Positions 1 through 34,595 of a stretch of 64,000 nt of DNA are shown one piece after another (position 1 is the first letter of the stretch; every line of letters begins with the position of its first letter). The notes beneath the pieces are model-generated. The model made no database searches and was not told the origin of the DNA. It saw only the letters and a program-made list of their open reading frames with translations. The DNA comes from a virus (Duplodnaviria > Heunggongvirae > Uroviricota > Caudoviricetes). The stretch lies in IMG/VR virus record IMGVR_UViG_3300033062_002687; one strand, 5' to 3'. A program made the position numbers and the translations under genes.

Positions 1-59
1 AATCGCACCCAGGTCTGAAGTTTAGAAGACTTCTGTCCTGTCTCCTAGACGATATGCTC
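1..59 (-). tRNA. tRNA-Arg(TCT), 3' end runs off the window
   Basis: Anticodon arm GAAGT-CT-TCT-AA-ACTTC, D-arm and start of T-arm visible on the reverse strand. Confidence 0.85.
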
Positions 60-61
60 AA

Positions 62-132
62 TGGGATCACCGGTGATCGCAACCGGATCGCGTAGTCCCA
101 AGCTACGAAGGCGTCTATTACCCCATGACCCC
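62..132 (-). tRNA. tRNA-Pro(TGG)
   Basis: Acceptor GGGGTCA/TGATCCC; anticodon arm CGTAG-CT-TGG-GA-CTACG. Confidence 0.9.
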
Positions 133-140
133 ATATATTC

Positions 141-200
141 GAGGGAACAAACGACAAAGGTTTCATTTTTGCATCGAAGTAACCCTTGTCTACGCCACTC
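141..200 (-). ncRNA. Candidate small structured RNA between tRNAs
   Basis: 10-bp stem GACAAGGGTT/AACCTTTGTC plus terminal GAG/CTC pairing; no ORF. Confidence 0.4.
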
Positions 201-202
201 GA

Positions 203-276
203 TGGGCAAGGCACGATTCGAACATGCGGCATCATCCTTGTAAGGGGTGCGTTCTTCCTAGCTGAACTACTTGCCC
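203..276 (-). tRNA. tRNA-Val(TAC)
   Basis: Acceptor GGGCAAG/CTTGCCC; arm CACCC-CT-TAC-AA-GGATG; TTCGAAT T-loop. Confidence 0.92.
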
Positions 277-278
277 GA

Positions 279-370
279 TGAGCGTACCAGGAATTGAACC
301 CGGACTTCAGAGTCTCTGCTTTTTTTTCAAAACCGTAGCTCTGTGCGCTTATCCATTACGCGATACGCCC
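279..370 (-). tRNA. tRNA-Arg(ACG) with 19-nt intron at 37/38 (314-332)
   Basis: CAGAG-CT-ACG-G[intron]A-CTCTG; BHB-like central helix CTAC/GCAG with an A34:C mismatch. Confidence 0.85.
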
Positions 371-373
371 AAA

Positions 374-446
374 TGTCCCCAGCGAGATTCGCACTCACGT
401 CTACTGCTCGAAAGGCAGTTATGCTTGTCTTCTACACCATAGGGAC
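374..446 (-). tRNA. tRNA-Glu(TTC)
   Basis: ACTGC-CT-TTC-GA-GCAGT; acceptor GTCCCTA/TGGGGAC. Confidence 0.9.
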
Positions 447-448
447 GA

Positions 449-527
449 TGGGATTGAAGGGATTTGAACCCTCGGCCAACCGATTAAGAGTCGGTTGCTC
501 TTAATTACCATGCTGAGCTACAATCCC
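449..527 (-). tRNA. tRNA-Lys(CTT)
   Basis: ACCGA-CT-CTT-AA-TCGGT; acceptor GGGATTG/CAATCCC. Confidence 0.92.
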
Positions 528-530
528 ATT

Positions 531-635
531 GTGTCATAGCGGTGACAGATTTCTCTGCCACCTTAGACGACAACTCTACTTACCAACGGTGCATGTCCAT
601 TCCCGTTGTTTCCTCATTGTTACGCCGTGTGACAC
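531..635 (-). ncRNA. Candidate ~105-nt structured ncRNA
   Basis: Terminal stem GTGTCA/TGACAC enclosing a CAACGG/CCGTTG hairpin and a GGTGGCAGA-GAAA-TCTGTCACC GNRA hairpin. Confidence 0.5.
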
Positions 636-646
636 TATGACTATGA

Positions 647-761
647 TGGCTCGAGGGAGGATCGAACTCCCGTTCTCACGGATTCTTAGTTGAAATCCGC
701 AGGCATATAATTCACGGATACCAAGTATCAGCCGTGCGCCTTGCCACTTGGCCATCGAGCC
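647..761 (-). tRNA. tRNA-Ile, intron-containing, with GAT and TAT anticodon cassettes
   Basis: Acceptor GGCTCGA/TCGAGCC; CACGG/CCGTG stem; 43-nt insert 683-725; two BHB-like solutions. Confidence 0.85.
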
Positions 762-764
762 AAA

Positions 765-836
765 CGCCGATGCTGGAAATTGCATCCAGAGTTGAAGAGT
801 GACAATCTTCTATGTTTCTGCTTACACCACACCGGC
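765..836 (-). tRNA. tRNA-Asp(GTC)
   Basis: GAAGA-TT-GTC-AC-TCTTC; G73. Confidence 0.88.
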
Positions 837-838
837 AA

Positions 839-911
839 TCTGGGCTGTGAGATTTGAACTCACATAGCATGGTCTACAGCCACGAGCTCTTCCAAGTTAA
901 GCTAAGCCCAG
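839..911 (-). tRNA. tRNA-Tyr(GTA), archaeal type
   Basis: CGTGG-CT-GTA-GA-CCATG; C1:G72, A73 and short variable loop (archaeal/eukaryal identity set). Confidence 0.9.
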
Positions 912-943
912 GTATCTAACTACTAATTAACTACTAATTACTG

Positions 944-1450
944 TCAAATTAGTAGTTGATTCGTCTTTTCATGAATAATATAATGAACGTTTGATTTACA
1001 TGTATGATATTTCTTCGATATATAATTATATGACATCCCTGATAAACTATCAAGCCTCATATTTTTTATTTCTTCATCACTAAATTTTCTTAATTTGTTT
1101 GCAGCAATTTTTGCTGATCTCATACGAATATATGGAGACTTATCCATCATATTGTCAGATGCTGTACCTATTTTAATATTTTTAAAATCATTATCTAATG
1201 AATTACCGTTCACATGTCTGACACATATGCCTTTTTTAAATAAATATTCACCATACAATTGATAAGCCGCTAATCTATGAACATAGATCTGGGCAAATTC
1301 TCCATGAAATTGTACCGTGAATCTCCAATATTTGTATTTAGTATTCTGATAATTTAATTTTCTGAATTTTTTACCAAATTTTACTCTTCCATCTGACAAA
1401 ACTCTATATCCTTTTTCAAATGCCTTTTTGATTGCTTCCTTTTGATTCAT
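944..1450 (-). CDS. HNH homing endonuclease with C-terminal HTH
   Basis: YVHRLAA...VRHVNGNSLDNDFKNI...SDN motif; start moved to MNQKE because the listed ATG at 1483 lies inside the tRNA-Met intron. Confidence 0.85.
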   Translation of the reverse strand: MNQKEAIKKAFEKGYRVLSDGRVKFGKKFRKLNYQNTKYKYWRFTVQFHGEFAQIYVHRLAAYQLYGEYLFKKGICVRHVNGNSLDNDFKNIKIGTASDNMMDKSPYIRMRSAKIAANKLRKFSDEEIKNMRLDSLSGMSYNYISKKYHTCKSNVHYIIHEKTNQLLI

Positions 1451-1462
1451 GTTAAAATAAAG

Positions 1463-1568
1463 TAGCGGTACCAGGACTTTCATTCAGCAGCTTTATGCTA
1501 ACTGATTTTGAACCTGGGACCTATGGCTCATGAGGCCATCGGGAACGACCATACTCCCCCATACCGCT
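1463..1568 (-). tRNA. tRNA-Met(CAT), probably initiator, with 30-nt intron in the T-loop (59/60; 1477-1506)
   Basis: A1:U72 acceptor AGCGGTA/TACCGCT; ATGGC-CT-CAT-GA-GCCAT; BHB helix TTCA/TGAA restores the TTCAAAT loop. Confidence 0.85.
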
Positions 1569-2008
1569 ATAGAAACATCTGTTCCGCAATGGAACAAAGA
1601 ACCAAAGAAAAAAACGCACACAGCAGAACAGGACGTTCCTATAGTCGGATATGACAACCAACTTGCGTTGATTGTTGATCCATCGGAAACCCGACGATCT
1701 CTCCGCCTTGTGGACAACCAGCTATCTTGATTGACTGCTGATATTTCCTTTCCTGTTTTACTGCTGTTAAGCTCATTTTGTGTGAATTTATTATACCTCT
1801 ATAATCATGTGGGAGCAAAATGCTCCCGAGTTCTTATCCAGCGCCAGTGTCTAACGACCAATGCTCCAAAAATTGGTCGATCATCAACACACTATATGCC
1901 TAGCACCAATCTTGTTGCAAAATTGATGATCATCAGCATATCTTAACCAAATCCGATATTGTTGGACCCGATTGAAAGCCAACCTTAATGTTAGGAAAAT
2001 AAATGGAT

Positions 2009-2260
2009 TTATATATTTTTCTGTTTCTCAAGATACTCATTTTCAAGATTATCGAGAGCCTGTAAGACTGCCCGGATGTCTGGCTTTCCGACATTGGAGT
2101 ATGCATGAATTAACAGAACTAGTGTATCTCTTTTTAATCCAGAGCTTGCGAGCTTCTTAAATGCCCTGGAGATCATGCGAATCTCTCTAGCTAATTTCTC
2201 AGATGTGTCCTCTAATTTTTTAAGCTCGACTAATGTTACATTCTCCTTTTCTTTTTCCAT
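2009..2260 (-). CDS. Hypothetical protein
   Basis: 83-aa ORF with purine-rich RBS-like upstream sequence. Confidence 0.7.
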   Translation of the reverse strand: MEKEKENVTLVELKKLEDTSEKLAREIRMISRAFKKLASSGLKRDTLVLLIHAYSNVGKPDIRAVLQALDNLENEYLEKQKNI

Positions 2261-2281
2261 TGTTTCATCCCCATTTATTTT

Positions 2282-2659
2282 CTATTCAAAGGCAGAACCG
2301 AGATTTGAACTCGGAGTTCCTCGTCTGCAGCGAGGCGCCTTGCCGGATTTGACCATTCTGCCGTAAATGTAAAAGACAGCTCTTCCGTGCTTTTTGGCAA
2401 ATCTTACCTTGAGCATTCTCTTAAGCTTTCTGTTCCATCGATCAACCTGCCAATAATGCTTGAACCAATATGTTTCTGGCCGGAACTTTGTTTTATCTGG
2501 ATATCCACGACAACCGTCTCTCCGTTCTATCCACGAATCATAATAAGGTTCTATGAACAAATCATTCTCGATGATTAATTTCTGTGGAATTAATGGTTCT
2601 GGATAGACCCATCCACTTCCACGCCTATCTTTTTGAGTCATTCGCTTTCTGTTTCCCAA
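2282..2659 (-). CDS. Hypothetical basic protein whose C-terminus reads through tRNA-Cys
   Basis: 125-aa ORF overlapping the upstream gene end. Confidence 0.55.
   Translation of the reverse strand: MGNRKRMTQKDRRGSGWVYPEPLIPQKLIIENDLFIEPYYDSWIERRDGCRGYPDKTKFRPETYWFKHYWQVDRWNRKLKRMLKVRFAKKHGRAVFYIYGRMVKSGKAPRCRRGTPSSNLGSAFE
2290..2362 (-). tRNA. tRNA-Cys(GCA)
   Basis: CCTCG-CT-GCA-GA-CGAGG; U73; acceptor GGCAGAA/TTCTGCC. Confidence 0.92.
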
Positions 2660-2976
2660 GTACCATCACGTTTGTAATTAAAGACCTTGAATTTATCTTC
2701 ACGATCATAGCTTACATACTGTTTTATGATGAACTTTTTGTATCGCTTTTTAAAGGCAGCTAACAGATAATGAGGATGAGATACATTTGTTGAACATTGT
2801 ATCAGATACACATTACATTCATCATCAATTGCAAGCAAATCAAAAAGCGAATATGCATCTTTGGGTGATACGAACCTTCCTGTCCGCTCGACGATAGCTA
2901 CATTTAAACCTTTTTTTTCCAATAATTTTATAAGATTTGCGCGGTTTTTGTTACCCTTTCTCCTAGGATGTTTCAT
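2638..2976 (-). CDS. Hjc-like Holliday junction resolvase / PD-(D/E)XK nuclease
   Basis: KGN...LEKKG...FDLLAID...YLIQCST pattern. Confidence 0.7.
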   Translation of the reverse strand: MKHPRRKGNKNRANLIKLLEKKGLNVAIVERTGRFVSPKDAYSLFDLLAIDDECNVYLIQCSTNVSHPHYLLAAFKKRYKKFIIKQYVSYDREDKFKVFNYKRDGTWETESE

Positions 2977-2981
2977 TTATC

Positions 2982-3645
2982 TTAGCATGAAGCTTGGTTG
3001 TTTTTAAAGTTTTTGCCTTCGAGCTTGCTAATGAACTGATATATGCCGCAAAGATCAGTGTATTCTGTTGAATGTATCTCCTTTATCTTCGCCTGATTGT
3101 AGGTTGAAAGTGTGTCCAAAAATCTCTTAGAGTAAACTGAGGATATCCCAAGATAAAATTCCTCGGCGACTCCATGAAGCATCTGATCGATCTTCTTGAA
3201 CCAATGCGTAATCTCGACGTCGCGCGTACCTGCAAACCTTGCCGCAGACTGTCCTCCTTTTCGATGCTTATGCGGCACCAATGATTTTTCATGAAACACC
3301 TCCTCAATCTCACCATCTGAATAAACCTTAGCGAAAAAGCATTCGTCATAATCCATAACAAGGATTTGATACATCAATGTTTTTGTATCAGGAAACCTTA
3401 ACAGATCCTTACCACAAAAATAATGTTTTTGCTGCTTATCATATGGCTCAACTGTTAATTGTTCATCATTCCAATATAAAGATATGCCATCTGTTTTCTT
3501 GGCATTACTAAAGATAGTGAGCTATTTTGTTAAGGCCCGCAGTAGTGCTCTGCCTAGTTTGCCTGTCCTTAATGTTCTTTGCTGACATAATCTCTTGCCT
3601 TATGTTTGGTGCTTGTGCACCGACGGGGATATGAATACTTATCAT
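2982..3645 (-). CDS. aRF1/eRF1-like peptide chain release factor (N+M domains), expressed via a +1 frameshift at 3513-3508
   Basis: SD GGAGG + ATG 3645; NIKD (NIKS-like) in frame 0; YFCG (YxC) and KHRKGGQSAARF in the +1 frame; junction CTT TAG. Confidence 0.85.
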
Positions 3646-3664
3646 TTTCTTACCTCCATTTAAA

Positions 3665-3796
3665 CGCCCAAGGCCGGAGTTGAACCGACACGCCTTTTAC
3701 AGCCCCTGTTTTCCAGTCCTGGCTTCAAGTCCTGATATTCGATTCCTGGCTCGAATTAGCAGACAGGTGAATCAGGCCATAGATTCTATCTTGGGC
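3665..3796 (-). tRNA. tRNA-Ser with a 46-nt insert holding GCT, CGA, TGA and GGA anticodon cassettes
   Basis: Acceptor GCCCAAG/CTTGGGC, G73, long variable arm, CCTGT/ACAGG anticodon stem. Confidence 0.85.
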
Positions 3797-3800
3797 AAAA

Positions 3801-3891
3801 AGCCACCATCCAGAGTTGCACTGGAATTAGCTAGTCACCTGGATATATATTTCCTACAGGCTAGCTGAACTTTCTGTTGTTCTATGATGGC
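3801..3891 (-). tRNA. tRNA-Thr(TGT) with 19-nt intron (3836-3854); unusual C33
   Basis: GCTAG-CC-TGT-A[intron]A-CTAGC; clean BHB CCTG/CAGG with TAG and TGA bulges. Confidence 0.82.
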
Positions 3892-3936
3892 ATACTACTT
3901 TAAAGCTGCACTATCCTACTACTATACTACTTTCAA

Positions 3937-4085
3937 TGCGGGTGTAGGGAATCGAACCCTATCCGCCACCTTGTGGCATCAGATTTCTTCCGAATGGATT
4001 TAAGTTCCGTCTTGAGTGACGTCCTAAGTTCTAAGTTTCGTCTCATTGATCTTAGTCTGACGCTTCTCCATCCAGCTCCACCCGC
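3937..4085 (-). tRNA. tRNA-Leu with a 65-nt insert holding AAG, TAG, CAA and TAA anticodon cassettes
   Basis: Acceptor GCGGGTG/CACCCGC, A73, long variable arm GCCAC/GTGGC, TCAGA/TCTGA stem. Confidence 0.85.
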
Positions 4086-4090
4086 AAAAA

Positions 4091-4163
4091 TGGACTCAGC
4101 GGAATTTGAATCCGCAGCCTATTCCTTGCAAGGGAATTGCTCTGGCATTAGAGCTATGAGCCC
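4091..4163 (-). tRNA. tRNA-Ala(TGC)
   Basis: ATTCC-CT-TGC-AA-GGAAT; G3:U70. Confidence 0.92.
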
Positions 4164-4215
4164 GTTTGTTACTTATATTTTTCATATAACTATGCCATTT
4201 TACATAACTATTAAC

Positions 4216-4322
4216 TGGGACTGACCGGATTTGAACCGGTACCGACTGGTTCCTCCTTCCTTTCATCCTATAACTCTCTGAGACCTGGAGCCAGTAATTC
4301 TGCCTGATTAAAATACAATCCC
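4216..4322 (-). tRNA. tRNA-Trp(CCA) with 34-nt intron (4251-4284)
   Basis: ACTGG-CT-CCA-G[intron]A-CCAGT; central helix CTCC/GGAG. Confidence 0.88.
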
Positions 4323-4323
4323 G

Positions 4324-4478
4324 CGGGCATCGAAGGACTTGCACCTTCTTCCTCCTGTTCACTGTTATCTTCACCAAGCACAAGAGTGGTCCCTCGTGGA
4401 AATGACATCAATGGACTTTGGTTTCCATTGGTGAATGATGCTAACAGACAGGCGCTCATCTATATGAGCTTGATGCCC
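4324..4478 (-). tRNA. tRNA-Asn(GTT) with 82-nt intron (4360-4441)
   Basis: CCTGT-CT-GTT-A[intron]A-ACAGG; central helix CTGT/ACAG; intron stem TTCACCAA/TTGGTGAA. Confidence 0.88.
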
Positions 4479-4670
4479 ATTAGTGGGGTCTCCATGTTGA
4501 ATATTATTAGTTTAGCTTGCCACAGAATTCCCATCGGAGTTCAAGGCACAAAGAAAATCTATGGCAAGTTTTGTCAGCAGGATAGCTGACTATTTGCGAG
4601 CGACAATGCAGTGGCATTCAGCCATGATAATGTCGTGCATCTTACCATAATCTGATGAGAAAGTAAACAA

Positions 4671-6858: not shown

Positions 6859-7374
6859 TTAGGAGCATTTTTTTCTCATCATAAATTTATTTGCAAGATA
6901 CTCCTCATCATCTTGCGAAAAGCCCTTTCGCATCTTCATATGGTCCAAAACATGATGATGCCCAACTTCATGAGGAATAACGTATTCATCCATATATTTT
7001 TGGAGCTCATGCCTCTCGTCAAGCTCAGGTATCATCTTTTTGTATCTCATACCTTTCTTTGTTTTGATCACTGGTTCTGAATAAACATTGATGCGATCAG
7101 CCTTATCAGAATATTGAGCAAATGCCTTAGTTTGCTCAGTAAAAGAAAGCTTTGAAGGAGGCCTGAATGAAACCTCCTTTAAGCCTGTTAGCTGCTCTTC
7201 CGGCAGTGTTTCTAATACCCTCTTTGCCTCTTGAGGAGAGATCGGGTAAACATGATTCTTATATGTAGACTTAACTGTGATTGGAATTTTCACCTTACCT
7301 TTCTTCACGAATGCTGCTGTCCTGATGCCTTTTCTCGCCATTCTATGTCTCCAAGATTCCCATTTCCATGTCAT
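6859..7374 (-). CDS. Tag-family protein, zincin-like metallopeptidase
   Basis: WESWRHRMARKGIRT tag; HEVGH with downstream EE. Confidence 0.75.
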   Translation of the reverse strand: MTWKWESWRHRMARKGIRTAAFVKKGKVKIPITVKSTYKNHVYPISPQEAKRVLETLPEEQLTGLKEVSFRPPSKLSFTEQTKAFAQYSDKADRINVYSEPVIKTKKGMRYKKMIPELDERHELQKYMDEYVIPHEVGHHHVLDHMKMRKGFSQDDEEYLANKFMMRKKCS

Positions 7375-8330
7375 TGTTTATCAACTCCTTCAATCTTCAT
7401 CCAAGCAGCTTTTACTGCAGGCTTCTTATCAGGATATACATGCTTAAGATCTTTATATGATGCACCTTGATCCTTTAACCATGAAACATCATCTAGGAAT
7501 TCACGAGAGACTGTCGGCAAAGGATCATATTGCTTACGTCGACCAACAAGCTGAGGACCAATTGAAGGTTCTGACCAGGTTGAAGTTGGTTTCTTTGCAT
7601 CATATTTATTATCTTTTTTTATAAATTCTTCTATTTCTTCATCAGAATAATCCAATAATTTACCTATTTTTTTATGAAACACAGGATTATGTTTGATCTC
7701 TTTTGTTGGGATTGATTCATAAATATTTTTCAATTCACGAGCAACATGTTCTTTTTCAGGTTGAAAATACAGGAAATCGTGATAAAGTGGTGGAATATCA
7801 TGCTCAACAGTCAACATCGGCAAATTTGTTTTAAGCGAATGCCCTGACATAACAACCGCTTTGTTTCCTGATTCGACTTCTTTAAGCTGTTCTTCATCTG
7901 ACATCTCGGAAAATTTTTTAGCTTGAAAAAGCTTAATACGCCTTTTTCTATCAATCTCATCCTGATACTTCATTTTTGCAAGAATTTCATCAGGATTTTG
8001 TTCAATAAGATTTTTGAATTCCTCATTTGAATAAGAAGAATCAATTGCCTTAAACCTAGTTCTTGCAAATTTTCTCTTTGCTAATTCATCCTTCCCCTCC
8101 TCAAATAATCGCTTCATATTACTTAAAATCTGCTCAGGTGATTCTCCATGTATGGAGGTTACTGGAACTGAATCATCCATAACTCTTATGAATTCCTTTC
8201 TTGCCAAATACCTACTGTTCGCTTTATCATATTTTGTTTTTATGCCACGAGCTGCTAGAGCATGCTGCCAACTATGCAGAAACCATCCTTTTCCAAACGA
8301 CTGCTTGTATTTTTGCTGTAGATTCATCAT
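7371..8330 (-). CDS. Tag-family multi-module protein
   Basis: GWFLHSWQHALAARGIKT tag. Confidence 0.75.
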   Translation of the reverse strand: MMNLQQKYKQSFGKGWFLHSWQHALAARGIKTKYDKANSRYLARKEFIRVMDDSVPVTSIHGESPEQILSNMKRLFEEGKDELAKRKFARTRFKAIDSSYSNEEFKNLIEQNPDEILAKMKYQDEIDRKRRIKLFQAKKFSEMSDEEQLKEVESGNKAVVMSGHSLKTNLPMLTVEHDIPPLYHDFLYFQPEKEHVARELKNIYESIPTKEIKHNPVFHKKIGKLLDYSDEEIEEFIKKDNKYDAKKPTSTWSEPSIGPQLVGRRKQYDPLPTVSREFLDDVSWLKDQGASYKDLKHVYPDKKPAVKAAWMKIEGVDKQ

Positions 8331-9196
8331 AGACCCCACTGATGCCTTTTTCTTGGACTAATCCATTTATCACCAGATGGCTCATCATCTTGATAATCAT
8401 CTTCATTGCGTATTTTCTTTTTGACTTGATATTTCATTGCCTTAAAAACATCCTTTTCTTCCTTAGACATATTTTCTGTTGCTTTTTGTAATTTTTCTTT
8501 CTGTAATTCCTTCGATAACTTCATCGCACCTGTAGATCCAACAGCCTCGGTGACAGGAACACCACGCTTATATATTTGTTTTTTCATTCTTTCTGTAAAA
8601 TGTACAGCTCTTTTTTCTGCACCAAGCGGCTCATGTTTTGTGATAAGATCATCCCATGTCCACTCTTTTGAATCAGAAGGCTTTCCTTCAATCTCTTTCC
8701 AATTACCAGTAGATTCATCAAAAATACTTGGCAAACCTTTCTTTCTTCTAGCTTCATCCTCTCTGAAATGAGCATATTCATGAAAAAATGAACTTTCTGA
8801 ACCAGGCATATGAGCATATTTCAAACTAATAAATGGAATTTGACTTTTATTTGTGCGTCCATATTGCGCACTAGTTTCAAATTCAGAAGCACCAGATTCA
8901 TCATGCTCATATGCAACTTTTTTATCAGCCATTTCTTTAATTATACCTGGTCTGATTTTCTCATAGGTTTCTAAAGCATGGATCACAGCATCACGATCTT
9001 TTGGTGAAATATTTTTATTAATTTCTATCTTTTCTCTCTTACCTTCTAAAGAATAAGGAACATGAACTAAATCTGGATATATTTTTCCTTCATGTTTAAA
9101 GACAAAATGTCTAGTTTTGATGCCTTTGGCTGCTAACATGTGTCGCCAACTATCTTTAAACCAACCCTTCATGTTGAACTTGTATTTTGGGTTCAT
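8327..9196 (-). CDS. Tag-family protein, zincin-like
   Basis: Tag; HEYAH...EKRA. Confidence 0.75.
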   Translation of the reverse strand: MNPKYKFNMKGWFKDSWRHMLAAKGIKTRHFVFKHEGKIYPDLVHVPYSLEGKREKIEINKNISPKDRDAVIHALETYEKIRPGIIKEMADKKVAYEHDESGASEFETSAQYGRTNKSQIPFISLKYAHMPGSESSFFHEYAHFREDEARRKKGLPSIFDESTGNWKEIEGKPSDSKEWTWDDLITKHEPLGAEKRAVHFTERMKKQIYKRGVPVTEAVGSTGAMKLSKELQKEKLQKATENMSKEEKDVFKAMKYQVKKKIRNEDDYQDDEPSGDKWISPRKRHQWGL

Positions 9197-9954
9197 ATAT
9201 TCTCACGTTGAAATTTTTCTCTTTCGATTCGTTCTTTTTGTTTTAAAAATTCTTCATTAAACTTTTGTACTTTTTCACCATCTAATAAAATATTTTTCAA
9301 ACTATGCGGCTCCGAATATCTTGTAACATAATTTAATTCTTCCGGTAAGCCCATTCGTTTTCTGAATCGCTGAGCAAATTTTTCTGCCTCTTCCTCAGAT
9401 TGTGCATGAGGAATATTCTTTCTCGTTGATTTATAACCAAGAACTTCATGTCCAATCTCATGCGGCAAAACATCATAAAGATATTCTTTTCGAGCTTCTT
9501 CAGGAGTCAATTCCATACCAGCAATAACAAAAGTTGATGGTTTAGTCTTTCTTGACCTAAATGGTTTTGTAAATAGAACAATTCTTCCTTCAGTAAAAGC
9601 CTGTCCATAAGTTCCTGAAGCGCCGAGAAGCATTGACGACGGAGCTTTTATCTCAACTTTTTTGACTGAAGCTTTTAATTCCTCTGGAGTCATCATTTCA
9701 ATCATTCCTTTTATCTCTTTTTCGGTAACAGGAGACCTATGAGTCTTTGGAAGATTTGACTGAATAACATCAATAGATGTTGGCTCGAGCTCGAACTTTT
9801 TGCCTCTTAAAAGCTTTATCCTGGTCTGATCTTCACCATAAGGCCAGGCTTTCTCAAGCAAAAATTTTCTTGTTTTGATACCTTTAGCCGCAAGCATATG
9901 TCTCCAACTATCTTTAAACCAACCTTTCATATTGAATTTGTATTTTGAAGTCAT
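9193..9954 (-). CDS. Tag-family protein, zincin-like
   Basis: Tag; LPHEIGH...EEEAEKFA. Confidence 0.75.
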   Translation of the reverse strand: MTSKYKFNMKGWFKDSWRHMLAAKGIKTRKFLLEKAWPYGEDQTRIKLLRGKKFELEPTSIDVIQSNLPKTHRSPVTEKEIKGMIEMMTPEELKASVKKVEIKAPSSMLLGASGTYGQAFTEGRIVLFTKPFRSRKTKPSTFVIAGMELTPEEARKEYLYDVLPHEIGHEVLGYKSTRKNIPHAQSEEEAEKFAQRFRKRMGLPEELNYVTRYSEPHSLKNILLDGEKVQKFNEEFLKQKERIEREKFQRENI

Positions 9955-33416: not shown

Positions 33417-34595
33417 TTAACGTCTCCAATACTCATATTCCTTGAGCTCTTTTGCACGCTGCTTTGTGAGGCGATCTTCCTCAACATCTTTCCAGCGCTG
33501 CTTTACAACTTCTTCCTGTTCCTTGAAAAATTCACCAGCTTCTGAACCAAATTCCTTAGCTTTTGACCCGAATTCCTTAGCCTTTACGCCAAAATCCTTA
33601 GCTCCTTCTTTCACTCTCTTCCAATCCTTAGATACTACAGATTCTGGCAAGCTCTCGTCAAATTCCTTTTTCGGAAATTTTGACTTTATCTTTTCTCTGA
33701 ATTCTGATACTTTTTCTCCAACTGCTCCACTAACATCTTCAGCCTTTCCTTTTACAGCACCCCAATCTTTCTTATAAATTGGCTCTGGTAGACCCTCTTC
33801 TGTTGGATCCTTATATGCAAAATTTCTTGCCTGGAATTTTTTCTTGTGATGAATCTCTCTCCTATCCCGAATAGCCTCTACAGCCTCATATCTTGGTATT
33901 TCCTCAGGTTCCATTCCAAATGTTTTCCTGAGATAATTTAATTCATCTTCAGATATATTACCTAGCTCTGAATCCTTATCACCTTTTGCATGCACAAATG
34001 GATGACGATCTTCCATATGGCTCCATACTTGATCCTGCTCATCAGAAGTCAATTCATTCCAATTTTTTTTAAATACCTCTTGAGCTCCTTCATTCCAATC
34101 GAGCCATTTTGCCTTGTTAATAGATTTGGTTGCTTGAAATTTTCGATCATCTTTTTCAGAATCCCTCACTTTTTTTGCTTGAAACTTTTCATTTTCAGCA
34201 GAAGTCAACCTTGCCTTAGAAAATTTCAGCTCTTTTGTAACTTCTGGCATTAATTTTTCAAGAAGCTTGTTAGCTCCTTCCGATGTACCTCCTGTGGATT
34301 TAAATTCCTCTGGAGTAACTTCTACATAAACAGCCTTTGTCACAGACTGCACACCTTCTTCCCCTGGCCAAGCAGTTTCCCTATCTGTCTCTGGACTCAT
34401 GATTATCATTGTTGGCTCTCTCACCATAAAACCTAGAACTTTACTTCCTTTCGGAATCTGTGATGGATCCATATACATTTTTCTATCTTGAAATTTCCTT
34501 ATTTTGGTTTTGATACCTTTCGCAGCGAGCATATGTCTCCAGGATTCGTTAAACCAACCTTTCATGTTGAATTTGTATTTTGTGTTTGTGTTCAT
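33417..34595 (-). CDS. Tag-family multi-module protein
   Basis: Tag; KFQA repeats; KAKEFGS repeats. Confidence 0.8.
   Translation of the reverse strand: MNTNTKYKFNMKGWFNESWRHMLAAKGIKTKIRKFQDRKMYMDPSQIPKGSKVLGFMVREPTMIIMSPETDRETAWPGEEGVQSVTKAVYVEVTPEEFKSTGGTSEGANKLLEKLMPEVTKELKFSKARLTSAENEKFQAKKVRDSEKDDRKFQATKSINKAKWLDWNEGAQEVFKKNWNELTSDEQDQVWSHMEDRHPFVHAKGDKDSELGNISEDELNYLRKTFGMEPEEIPRYEAVEAIRDRREIHHKKKFQARNFAYKDPTEEGLPEPIYKKDWGAVKGKAEDVSGAVGEKVSEFREKIKSKFPKKEFDESLPESVVSKDWKRVKEGAKDFGVKAKEFGSKAKEFGSEAGEFFKEQEEVVKQRWKDVEEDRLTKQRAKELKEYEYWRR

Follow-up and report, generated by a model that had tools for sequence, protein, structure and literature searches.

A single tRNA-Ile gene of 115 nt (761-647, minus strand), carried by a virus-like element, probably yields both tRNA-Ile(UAU) and tRNA-Ile(GAU) by way of two mutually exclusive folds of its precursor, a reading drawn from the sequence, from its conservation and covariation among relatives, and from predicted structures. 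All coordinates count along the window, the whole 64,000-nt stretch of DNA that was analysed, and the papers cited are represented throughout by excerpts of their text. In the proposed mechanism, two Ile cassettes would share one front half and one back half, and a splicing endonuclease, presumably that of the archaeal host, would act on either fold. In fold B, the 5' strand of the anticodon stem would pair with a duplicate of its partner that lies in intron 1; the loss of 20 nt at 32/33 would be followed by refolding of the RNA and then by excision of 23 nt at 37/38 to give UAU, the order being obligatory. Fold A would be the normal cloverleaf, with the first acceptor covered by a helix of the two intronic strand copies, and a single 43-nt intron would be removed at 37/38 across a G·A mismatch to give GAU.

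On a wider view that we favour only slightly, the gene would be a strand-swap RNA switch within a widespread class in archaeal viruses, in which a single gene holds every anticodon of an amino acid, alternative splicing in cis selects among them, and the GAU:UAU ratio could be tuned through folding or through the level of the endonuclease. The likely purpose is to supply the several anticodons that Ile, Leu, and Ser need in elements with roughly a single tRNA gene for each amino acid. As to its origin, a tandem duplication of positions 33-45 with their intron may have created the 32/33 motif at one stroke; intron 1 aligns to these positions and their intron, and TAAG is still found inside intron 1 of two relatives.

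Layout of the Isoleucine Gene

The gene, to which the Rfam tRNA model gives a score of 53.9 bits and over which Rfam returned tRNA matches only, was missed by ARAGORN without the intron search and labelled Ser with it. Its shared 5' exon (731..761, minus strand; tRNA positions 1-32, from the sequence and Rfam) comprises the acceptor strand, the D arm, the 5' anticodon-stem strand (736-732), and C32 (731). There follow U-GAU-A, a hairpin, a copy of the 3' anticodon-stem strand, and AA, and then U-UAU-A, the second intron, and the acceptor TAAG-AA|T. Cassette 1 (726..730, minus strand) holds U33, the anticodon GAU (729-727), and A37, and would serve as exon on the GAU route and as the first letters of intron 1 on the UAU route; cassette 2 (706..710, minus strand) is a 5-nt micro-exon of U33, the anticodon UAU (709-707), and A37, both cassettes being delimited by the sequence, the in-silico products, and the relatives. 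The shared 3' exon (647..682, minus strand; positions 38-73, from the sequence and Rfam) carries U38, the 3' stem strand, the T arm, the acceptor strand, and the discriminator A73, with CCA not encoded.

Intron 1 (711..730, minus strand; 20 nt at 32/33) is assigned from the sequence, the predicted fold, and covariation, and consists of a central helix of CACG (736-733) with CGTG (716-713), a bulge GC|T, an intron stem GATAC/GTATC, and an acceptor AA|T. An earlier note on this DNA had given these letters and coordinates, along with the swap of GAT (729-727) for TAT (709-707), and all of them match the sequence; the good BHB-type motif that it described is present, but its type is the relaxed HBh', with a 4-bp helix, one 3-nt bulge, and an intron stem, rather than the strict BHB, whose 4-bp central helix lies between two 3-nt bulges. 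The 3' cut of this motif falls within a 7-nt bulge of the predicted fold. A cut at 33/34 (18 nt) was ruled out, as it would leave a 9-nt anticodon loop and require the opening of a 5-bp helix.

Intron 2 (683..705, minus strand; 23 nt at 37/38, from in-silico splicing) belongs to the UAU route, and the predicted single 43-nt intron at 37/38 of the GAU route (683..725, minus strand; one G34·A mismatch) encloses cassette 2. Both would use the same 37/38 acceptor (682..693, minus strand; from sequence and pairing), which is made up of an arm (693-690), the helix partner TAAG (688-685), and the bulge AA|T. The helix had been described as perfect with UAU (CTTA/TAAG) and mismatched at G34:A with GAU, and the counts agree, TAAG-AA|T (688-682) making 4/4 pairs with CTTA and 3/4 with CTGA. 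Two intronic strand copies complete the layout. The copy of the 3' anticodon-stem strand (713..719, minus strand; from predicted folds and pairing across relatives) is predicted to pair with the 5' stem strand in the UAU-ready fold or with 701-695 in the GAU-ready fold, and the copy of the 5' anticodon-stem strand (695..701, minus strand; from pairing across nine genes) is predicted to cover the first acceptor in the GAU-ready fold and to pair with the 3' exon in the UAU-ready fold.

Splicing in silico by the removal of 730-711 and then of 705-683 gives tRNA-Ile(UAU), and the removal of 725-683 alone gives tRNA-Ile(GAU); each is 72 nt long and is assigned to Ile by ARAGORN, as were 14 of the 16 in-silico products from eight genes. 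With regard to charging, the predicted products possess A73 and C29-G41 and have U38 in place of A38, where A73, C29-G41, and A38 are the bacterial Ile determinants in a table whose archaeal entries are blank (PMC9976931, in excerpt). U38 (window 682) is found in all the dual-anticodon Ile genes (the nine related ones and L066) and A38 in two chromosomal GAU genes; U38 may affect t6A37 or codon discrimination. When the 43-nt intron was shuffled, 19 of 200,000 sequences contained a cassette of the Ile type whose central helix was Watson-Crick and whose intron stem had at least 4 pairs; 1,040 had the helix without the stem condition, and 5,204 did with G·U pairs permitted. Split or tri-split tRNA, with separate genes, complementary leaders, and joining in trans, was ruled out by the contiguous 115 nt of the gene, and self-splicing group I or II introns by the intron lengths of 20-43 nt, set against a ribozyme core of some hundred bases.

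The Two Predicted Routes

The route to tRNA-Ile(UAU) is well supported by comparison of the related sequences, and that product is very likely. As the anticodon stem changes, so does the intronic strand that pairs with it in the 32/33 helix, with three states in all (CGTG, CGAG, and CGGG), and 71 of the 72 cells of the motif are paired in nine distinct genes, four cells being altered on both sides. Only 3 of 500 shuffles scored as high, a count that overstates independence since the nine genes share ancestry, and slid controls gave 13-49%. The lone unpaired cell is that of L092, in which, by eye, an extra intron at 27/28 supplies the missing base. At 37/38, the UAU route has 4/4 pairs in 9/9 genes, with a weak intron-side stem (1 pair) in the window. 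CTTA would arise solely once C32 joins cassette 2, and the second motif would thus need intron 1 to be gone; the impression that the splicing looks ordered is in line with this comparison. The fold ready for 32/33 cleavage (fold B) is the predicted minimum in 8/8 genes (ViennaRNA), and the intronic 5'-strand copy (695-701) is predicted to draw the UAU-route intermediate into a non-productive hairpin, favoured by 5-10 kcal/mol. Relaxed HBh' motifs are cut by some endonuclease types only (PMC5829648, in excerpt).

For the GAU route, the copies 719-713 and 701-695 form 61 of the 63 pairs possible over nine genes in fold A; the copy 695-701 likewise makes 61 pairs with the 3' exon, so the 7-bp copy alone does not discriminate between the folds. 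Fold B leaves the intron-1 loop unpaired, yet across the nine genes this loop forms 38 contiguous pairs with the arm that precedes the 37/38 acceptor; shuffling of its letters gives 15 (0 of 20,000 as high). In the window, this arm (693-690) is predicted to pair with 724-721 on the GAU route; across genes it is conserved more than covarying (permutation p = 0.20) and it is absent in L085, and in the window and L099 it makes 4 pairs with cassette 1 and 1-2 with cassette 2. The 37/38 helix of this route has 3/4 pairs, with G34·A, in 9/9 genes, and an intron-side stem of 3-6 pairs in 8/9 and none in L085; its bulge in the window has one extra base opposite. Fold A attains a covariation score of 0.217, which none of 500 shuffles equalled, a score to be read in the light of related sequences, a contribution from the ordinary anticodon stem, and two rows off by one base. 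Its energy lies 7-11 kcal/mol above the ensemble with the BHB enforced and 1-5 kcal/mol with the stem alone, as computed by ViennaRNA in a model without tertiary contacts or enzyme.

Taken from the sequences, the support for the GAU route is separate from, but weaker than, that for the UAU route. The earlier claim that the gene can yield either anticodon is supported at the level of comparison among relatives. The same note had named the removal of the single 43-nt intron (GAU) only as the outcome that would speak against it, which points in the wrong direction, UAU being the better supported and GAU the uncertain product.

Relatives of the Isoleucine Gene

In the pattern used against metagenomes, the two wobble bases and the base facing position 34 were free and the other anticodon letters fixed, which is why the latter and A37 are invariant in the matches. 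The layout of GAU followed by UAU was found in 11 of 17 matches (8 distinct cores, with the stem check applied); the six left uncounted comprised five that failed the stem check and L095, which passed it and had no 32/33 partner. In all 11 genes, the wobble base of cassette 1 is G (A, G, or T being permitted), that of cassette 2 is T (any base being permitted), and TAAG stands at the acceptor. The base opposite position 34 is A in 9/9 genes, and C or T in two chromosomal GAU-only genes. Identity to the window is 67-82% in the intron as against 38-75% in the acceptor stem and T arm, with the intron higher in 7 of 8 cores. Most of the 11 genes lie inside tRNA clusters, in the neighbourhood of PCNA, ligase, HNH, TROVE, eRF1-like, or integrase genes. 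A close relative (two runs, one study) spans the Ile gene with a single listed change at 700, which turns a G·U into an A-U pair within the 695-701 copy. Two relatives of the Ile gene, L092:529-669 and L100:611-751, possess a third intron at 27/28, the removal of which is needed before the 32/33 motif forms.

The same pattern, a narrow one that the L066 design would escape, gave 11 matches in GTDB genomes and none with the dual design, two being single-intron archaeal tRNA-Ile(GAU) genes and nine failing the stem check. In viral contigs, the exact-style Ile pattern had no match and the reverse order (UAU before GAU) had three, none of them a tRNA by eye; the cassette-2 motif alone had four, none within a tRNA. 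INPHARED phages gave no match, and the eRF1-like protein used as bait led to no useful loci.

A looser pattern run against viral contigs returned 82 matches, of which 81 failed the stem check and one (L066) was kept. It sits in G001, a complete virus of 79,464 bases with terminal repeats and a terminase, where tRNA genes number 18 by Rfam matches and 22 by ARAGORN over the 16 kb spanning them. The sole Ile gene among these has GAU and then UAU, with a 20-nt intron at 29/30; G001 and the window share the anticodon pair but differ in the junction. The GAU route of the G001 gene has two mismatches. A splicing endonuclease is absent from G001, and no EndA was found among the 50 window ORFs scanned, so that a host enzyme is assumed. 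The ligase of the window had no match in G001, and the two are hence linked by tRNA design only.

Sister Genes for Serine and Leucine

Ile, Leu, and Ser are the amino acids beyond the reach of one anticodon, and the suggestion that the Ile gene is the third with the same logic agrees with what was found at the other two. The first (3665..3796, minus strand) has a tRNA-Ser body with the cassettes GCT, CGA, TGA, and GGA and three 32/33 acceptors, and the second (3937..4085, minus strand) a tRNA-Leu body with AAG, TAG, CAA, and TAA and with three 30/31 acceptors and one at 37/38, both as assigned from the sequence. Read by eye, the Ser cassettes elsewhere are GCT/TGA/GGA (L084) and GCT/GGA/TGA (G001), and those of Leu are TAG/TAA/CAA (L084), TAA/TAG/CAA (L099), and TAG/CAA (G001). 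Every cassette read in the Ser and Leu genes is synonymous, and the final cassette varies among elements.

The non-terminal cassettes of the Ser gene have a weak route (2-3 of 4 pairs by eye), both products of the G001 Leu gene mismatch at position 34, and four of the six multi-cassette genes have no product free of a mismatch in the 37/38 helix, so one mismatch must be tolerated if those genes work. A mismatch is nonetheless unusual: among 16 single-anticodon introns, 14 pair 4/4 at 37/38, one does not fit 37/38, and one (Arg ACG) has a mismatch, A34·C, which could be an I·C pair. Non-canonical introns also occur in the T loop of iMet and at 30/31 of Leu within the cluster, and a broad-specificity enzyme would be required if those genes work.

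Is UAU the Only Product?

The alternative that survives best, though we consider it unlikely, is an ordinary nested two-intron gene that makes UAU only, its GAU cassette being a duplication remnant kept as an intron stem or a handle for an enzyme that acts on the precursor. Intron 1 does look like a truncated copy of positions 33-45 and their intron, yet any letters could make an intron stem, and the wobble base is G in 11/11 genes where it was free. The predicted minimum (fold B in 8/8 genes) and the acceptor's match to UAU (4/4 in 9/9) suit such a gene well, and so do the nested, ordered introns known from archaea; moreover, a red alga removes multiple BHB introns by stability with 37/38 last, an order that would give UAU only if applied to the Ile gene (both PMC3978253, in excerpt). 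It offers no account, however, of the intron-1 loop pairing beside the 37/38 acceptor, of the strictly synonymous Ser and Leu cassettes, or of the recurrence of GAU with UAU at another junction in G001. Nor does it account for the strand copy that persists although step two is predicted to be slowed by it: one would expect a gene making UAU alone to have lost the 695-701 copy, the cause of the non-productive hairpin, and its retention would fit a role in fold A. The production of both tRNAs from alternative folds remains the preferred reading.

The Element, Its Codon Use, and Its Host

The start of the window lies in a dense minus-strand tRNA cluster (1-4480), in which ARAGORN found nine genes without the intron search and 13 with it, and further ones were recognised by eye. 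The 50 ORFs scanned are all on the minus strand and mostly of no known family; the matches recognised are HNH, Mom, Cas4-like, ATP-dependent ligase, collagen-like, and eRF1-like. These 50 include no recognisable capsid or terminase, and the element is therefore called virus-like. BHB-type introns, missing CCA ends, and the eRF1-like gene indicate that the host is probably archaeal. The check on AUA usage that had been proposed was run on the same ORFs and showed the codon to be used, with AUU 595, AUA 479 (37%), and AUC 218 among 1,292 Ile codons.

It has been reported that haloarchaea use agmatidine, and that a U34 tRNA-Ile there binds AUA, AUG, and AUU but little or no AUC, is charged poorly, and slows growth (PMC3895270, in excerpt). 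The anticodon UAU is rare in archaea, being listed in 2 of 167 genomes (PMC6000648, in excerpt), and ARMAN (DPANN) has no TiaS and a native UAU, with A34 tRNAs in ARMAN-4 and -5 (PMC3239211, in excerpt). DPANN endonucleases with an L3 loop accompany many disrupted tRNAs (PMC5829648, in excerpt). The window cluster also has A34 anticodons, namely Arg ACG and Leu AAG, and a neighbouring PCNA (L084) has just one named match, which comes from a Nanoarchaeota archaeon (34% identity) and offers a weak lead. By analogy, the host likely reads AUA with a UAU of its own in the DPANN-like manner, although the support for this is weak.

A second alternative, which we hold to be improbable, accepts both tRNAs and places their purpose in decoding AUA free of the TiaS/agmatidine of the host, or in replacing host tRNAs cut by nucleases. 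The rarity of UAU in archaeal genomes and the 37% share of AUA would be consistent with it, as would the translation helpers that the elements carry, such as the eRF1-like protein and Pth2. Nevertheless, a CAU cassette would suit a TiaS host and occurs in none of the 11 genes where the pattern permitted it; the haloarchaeal U34 tRNA-Ile binds AUG and is poorly charged (PMC3895270, in excerpt), and the weak PCNA lead points to Nanoarchaeota. The suggestion in the earlier note that UAU would bypass host TiaS accordingly found no support, and matching a UAU-using host is the simpler reading.

Lastly, removal of just the 43-nt intron, with GAU the only product and the UAU cassette a silent part of the intron, is very improbable: every archaeal endonuclease can cut at 37/38 and only some types cut relaxed non-canonical motifs (PMC5829648, in excerpt), U34 tRNA-Ile is harmful in haloarchaea (PMC3895270, in excerpt), and the UAU-route intermediate is predicted to misfold, yet the 32/33 partner takes on three letter states in step with the anticodon stem, the acceptor suits U34 and not G34, and the other non-canonical introns of the cluster imply a broad-specificity enzyme if those genes work.

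Relation to Known Systems

The nearest likeness to the proposed choice between two folds is found in Caldivirga maquilingensis, whose tri-split tRNA-Gly and split tRNA-Ala, described by Fujishima in 2009, likewise exchange synonymous anticodon pieces via BHB motifs while the 5' and 3' parts stay in common (summaries in PMC4390854 and PMC4033280, in excerpt). There, separate transcripts are joined in trans through leaders, whereas the Ile gene is one locus with a predicted choice in cis by exclusive folds. The nested pre-tRNAs of Thermoproteales, ARMAN-2, and Asgard archaea also combine a relaxed non-canonical intron with a canonical one at 37/38, and their second motif forms after the first splice, as is predicted for the Ile gene (PMC3978253, PMC3239211, and PMC11291895, in excerpt). 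One product is described for them in these excerpts, whereas intron 1 of the Ile gene opens with a complete second anticodon and its sequence is conserved for a fold that would bypass the first splice. Reading of AUA via UAU, as proposed here, is known from the tRNA-Ile(UAU) of ARMAN/DPANN, Nanoarchaeum, and Korarchaeum (PMC3239211 and PMC6000648, in excerpt); the UAU tRNA of ARMAN-2 has a 37/38 intron like that of the Ile gene, and ARMAN-4 and -5 have A34 tRNAs alongside (PMC3239211, in excerpt). These UAU tRNAs are described as having their own genes, with a separate GAU gene in Korarchaeum, whereas the virus-like element studied here would produce both from a single locus.

Alternative splicing of a tRNA gene in cis was not found described in the excerpts of the literature searched. 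Predictions of tRNAs that overlap at a single locus are said to feature in the papers on SPLITS, and this could make the finding less new. Should both products arise, a single tRNA gene would alter decoding by alternative splicing in cis, which was found described only in trans; tRNA introns would gain a direct function, a long-standing question, and anticodons would be missed or mislabelled by gene finders in archaea and their viruses. The Ile gene would be the cleanest substrate for a test, with its 115 nt, predicted products one base apart, and nine natural variants.

Other Features of the Cluster and Its Relatives

The eRF1-like gene of the window (3644-2982, minus strand) consists of two frames joined by CTT TAG, with a slip site near 3513-3508; the first frame stops at CTT TAG and the +1 frame runs into the eRF1 domain. 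The same break is seen in the eRF1-like gene of L089 near 1060, and it resembles the autoregulatory +1 frameshift of bacterial RF2. An initiator-type tRNA-Met(CAU) at about 1568-1463 (minus strand), undetected by ARAGORN and Rfam, bears a BHB intron at about 59/60, inside its T loop.

A34 is rare in archaea; the tRNA-Arg at 370-279 (minus strand) has the anticodon ACG, and its intron keeps a C opposite position 34, which fits a former G34 or inosine. The tRNA-Arg introns of L066:6086-6193, L085:1623-1733, L088:2858-2963, and L094:1505-1610 have a common internal GG-CT-A motif that resembles a copy of positions 30-33, the next triplets not being Arg anticodons. Canonical introns of 82 nt and 34 nt occur in tRNA-Asn(GUU) (4478-4324, minus strand) and tRNA-Trp(CCA) (4322-4216, minus strand), respectively; the Asn intron region is swapped for a few letters in contigs of three runs, and the Trp intron stretch is missing in two.

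Between tRNA genes at 641-528 (minus strand) lies a structured RNA of 110 nt with an 8-9-bp terminal stem and a long 3' hairpin, which has no Rfam match and is nearly unchanged in a close relative. A paralogous ORF family with a common N-terminal motif (W..SWRH...A.GI.T), for which no Pfam or PHROG match above the cut-off was obtained, occupies 6859-9954 and 33417-34595 (minus strand). A long non-coding stretch at 1975-1780 (minus strand) has a rod-like fold of -57.9 kcal/mol, a value without shuffle control, and is present in relatives.
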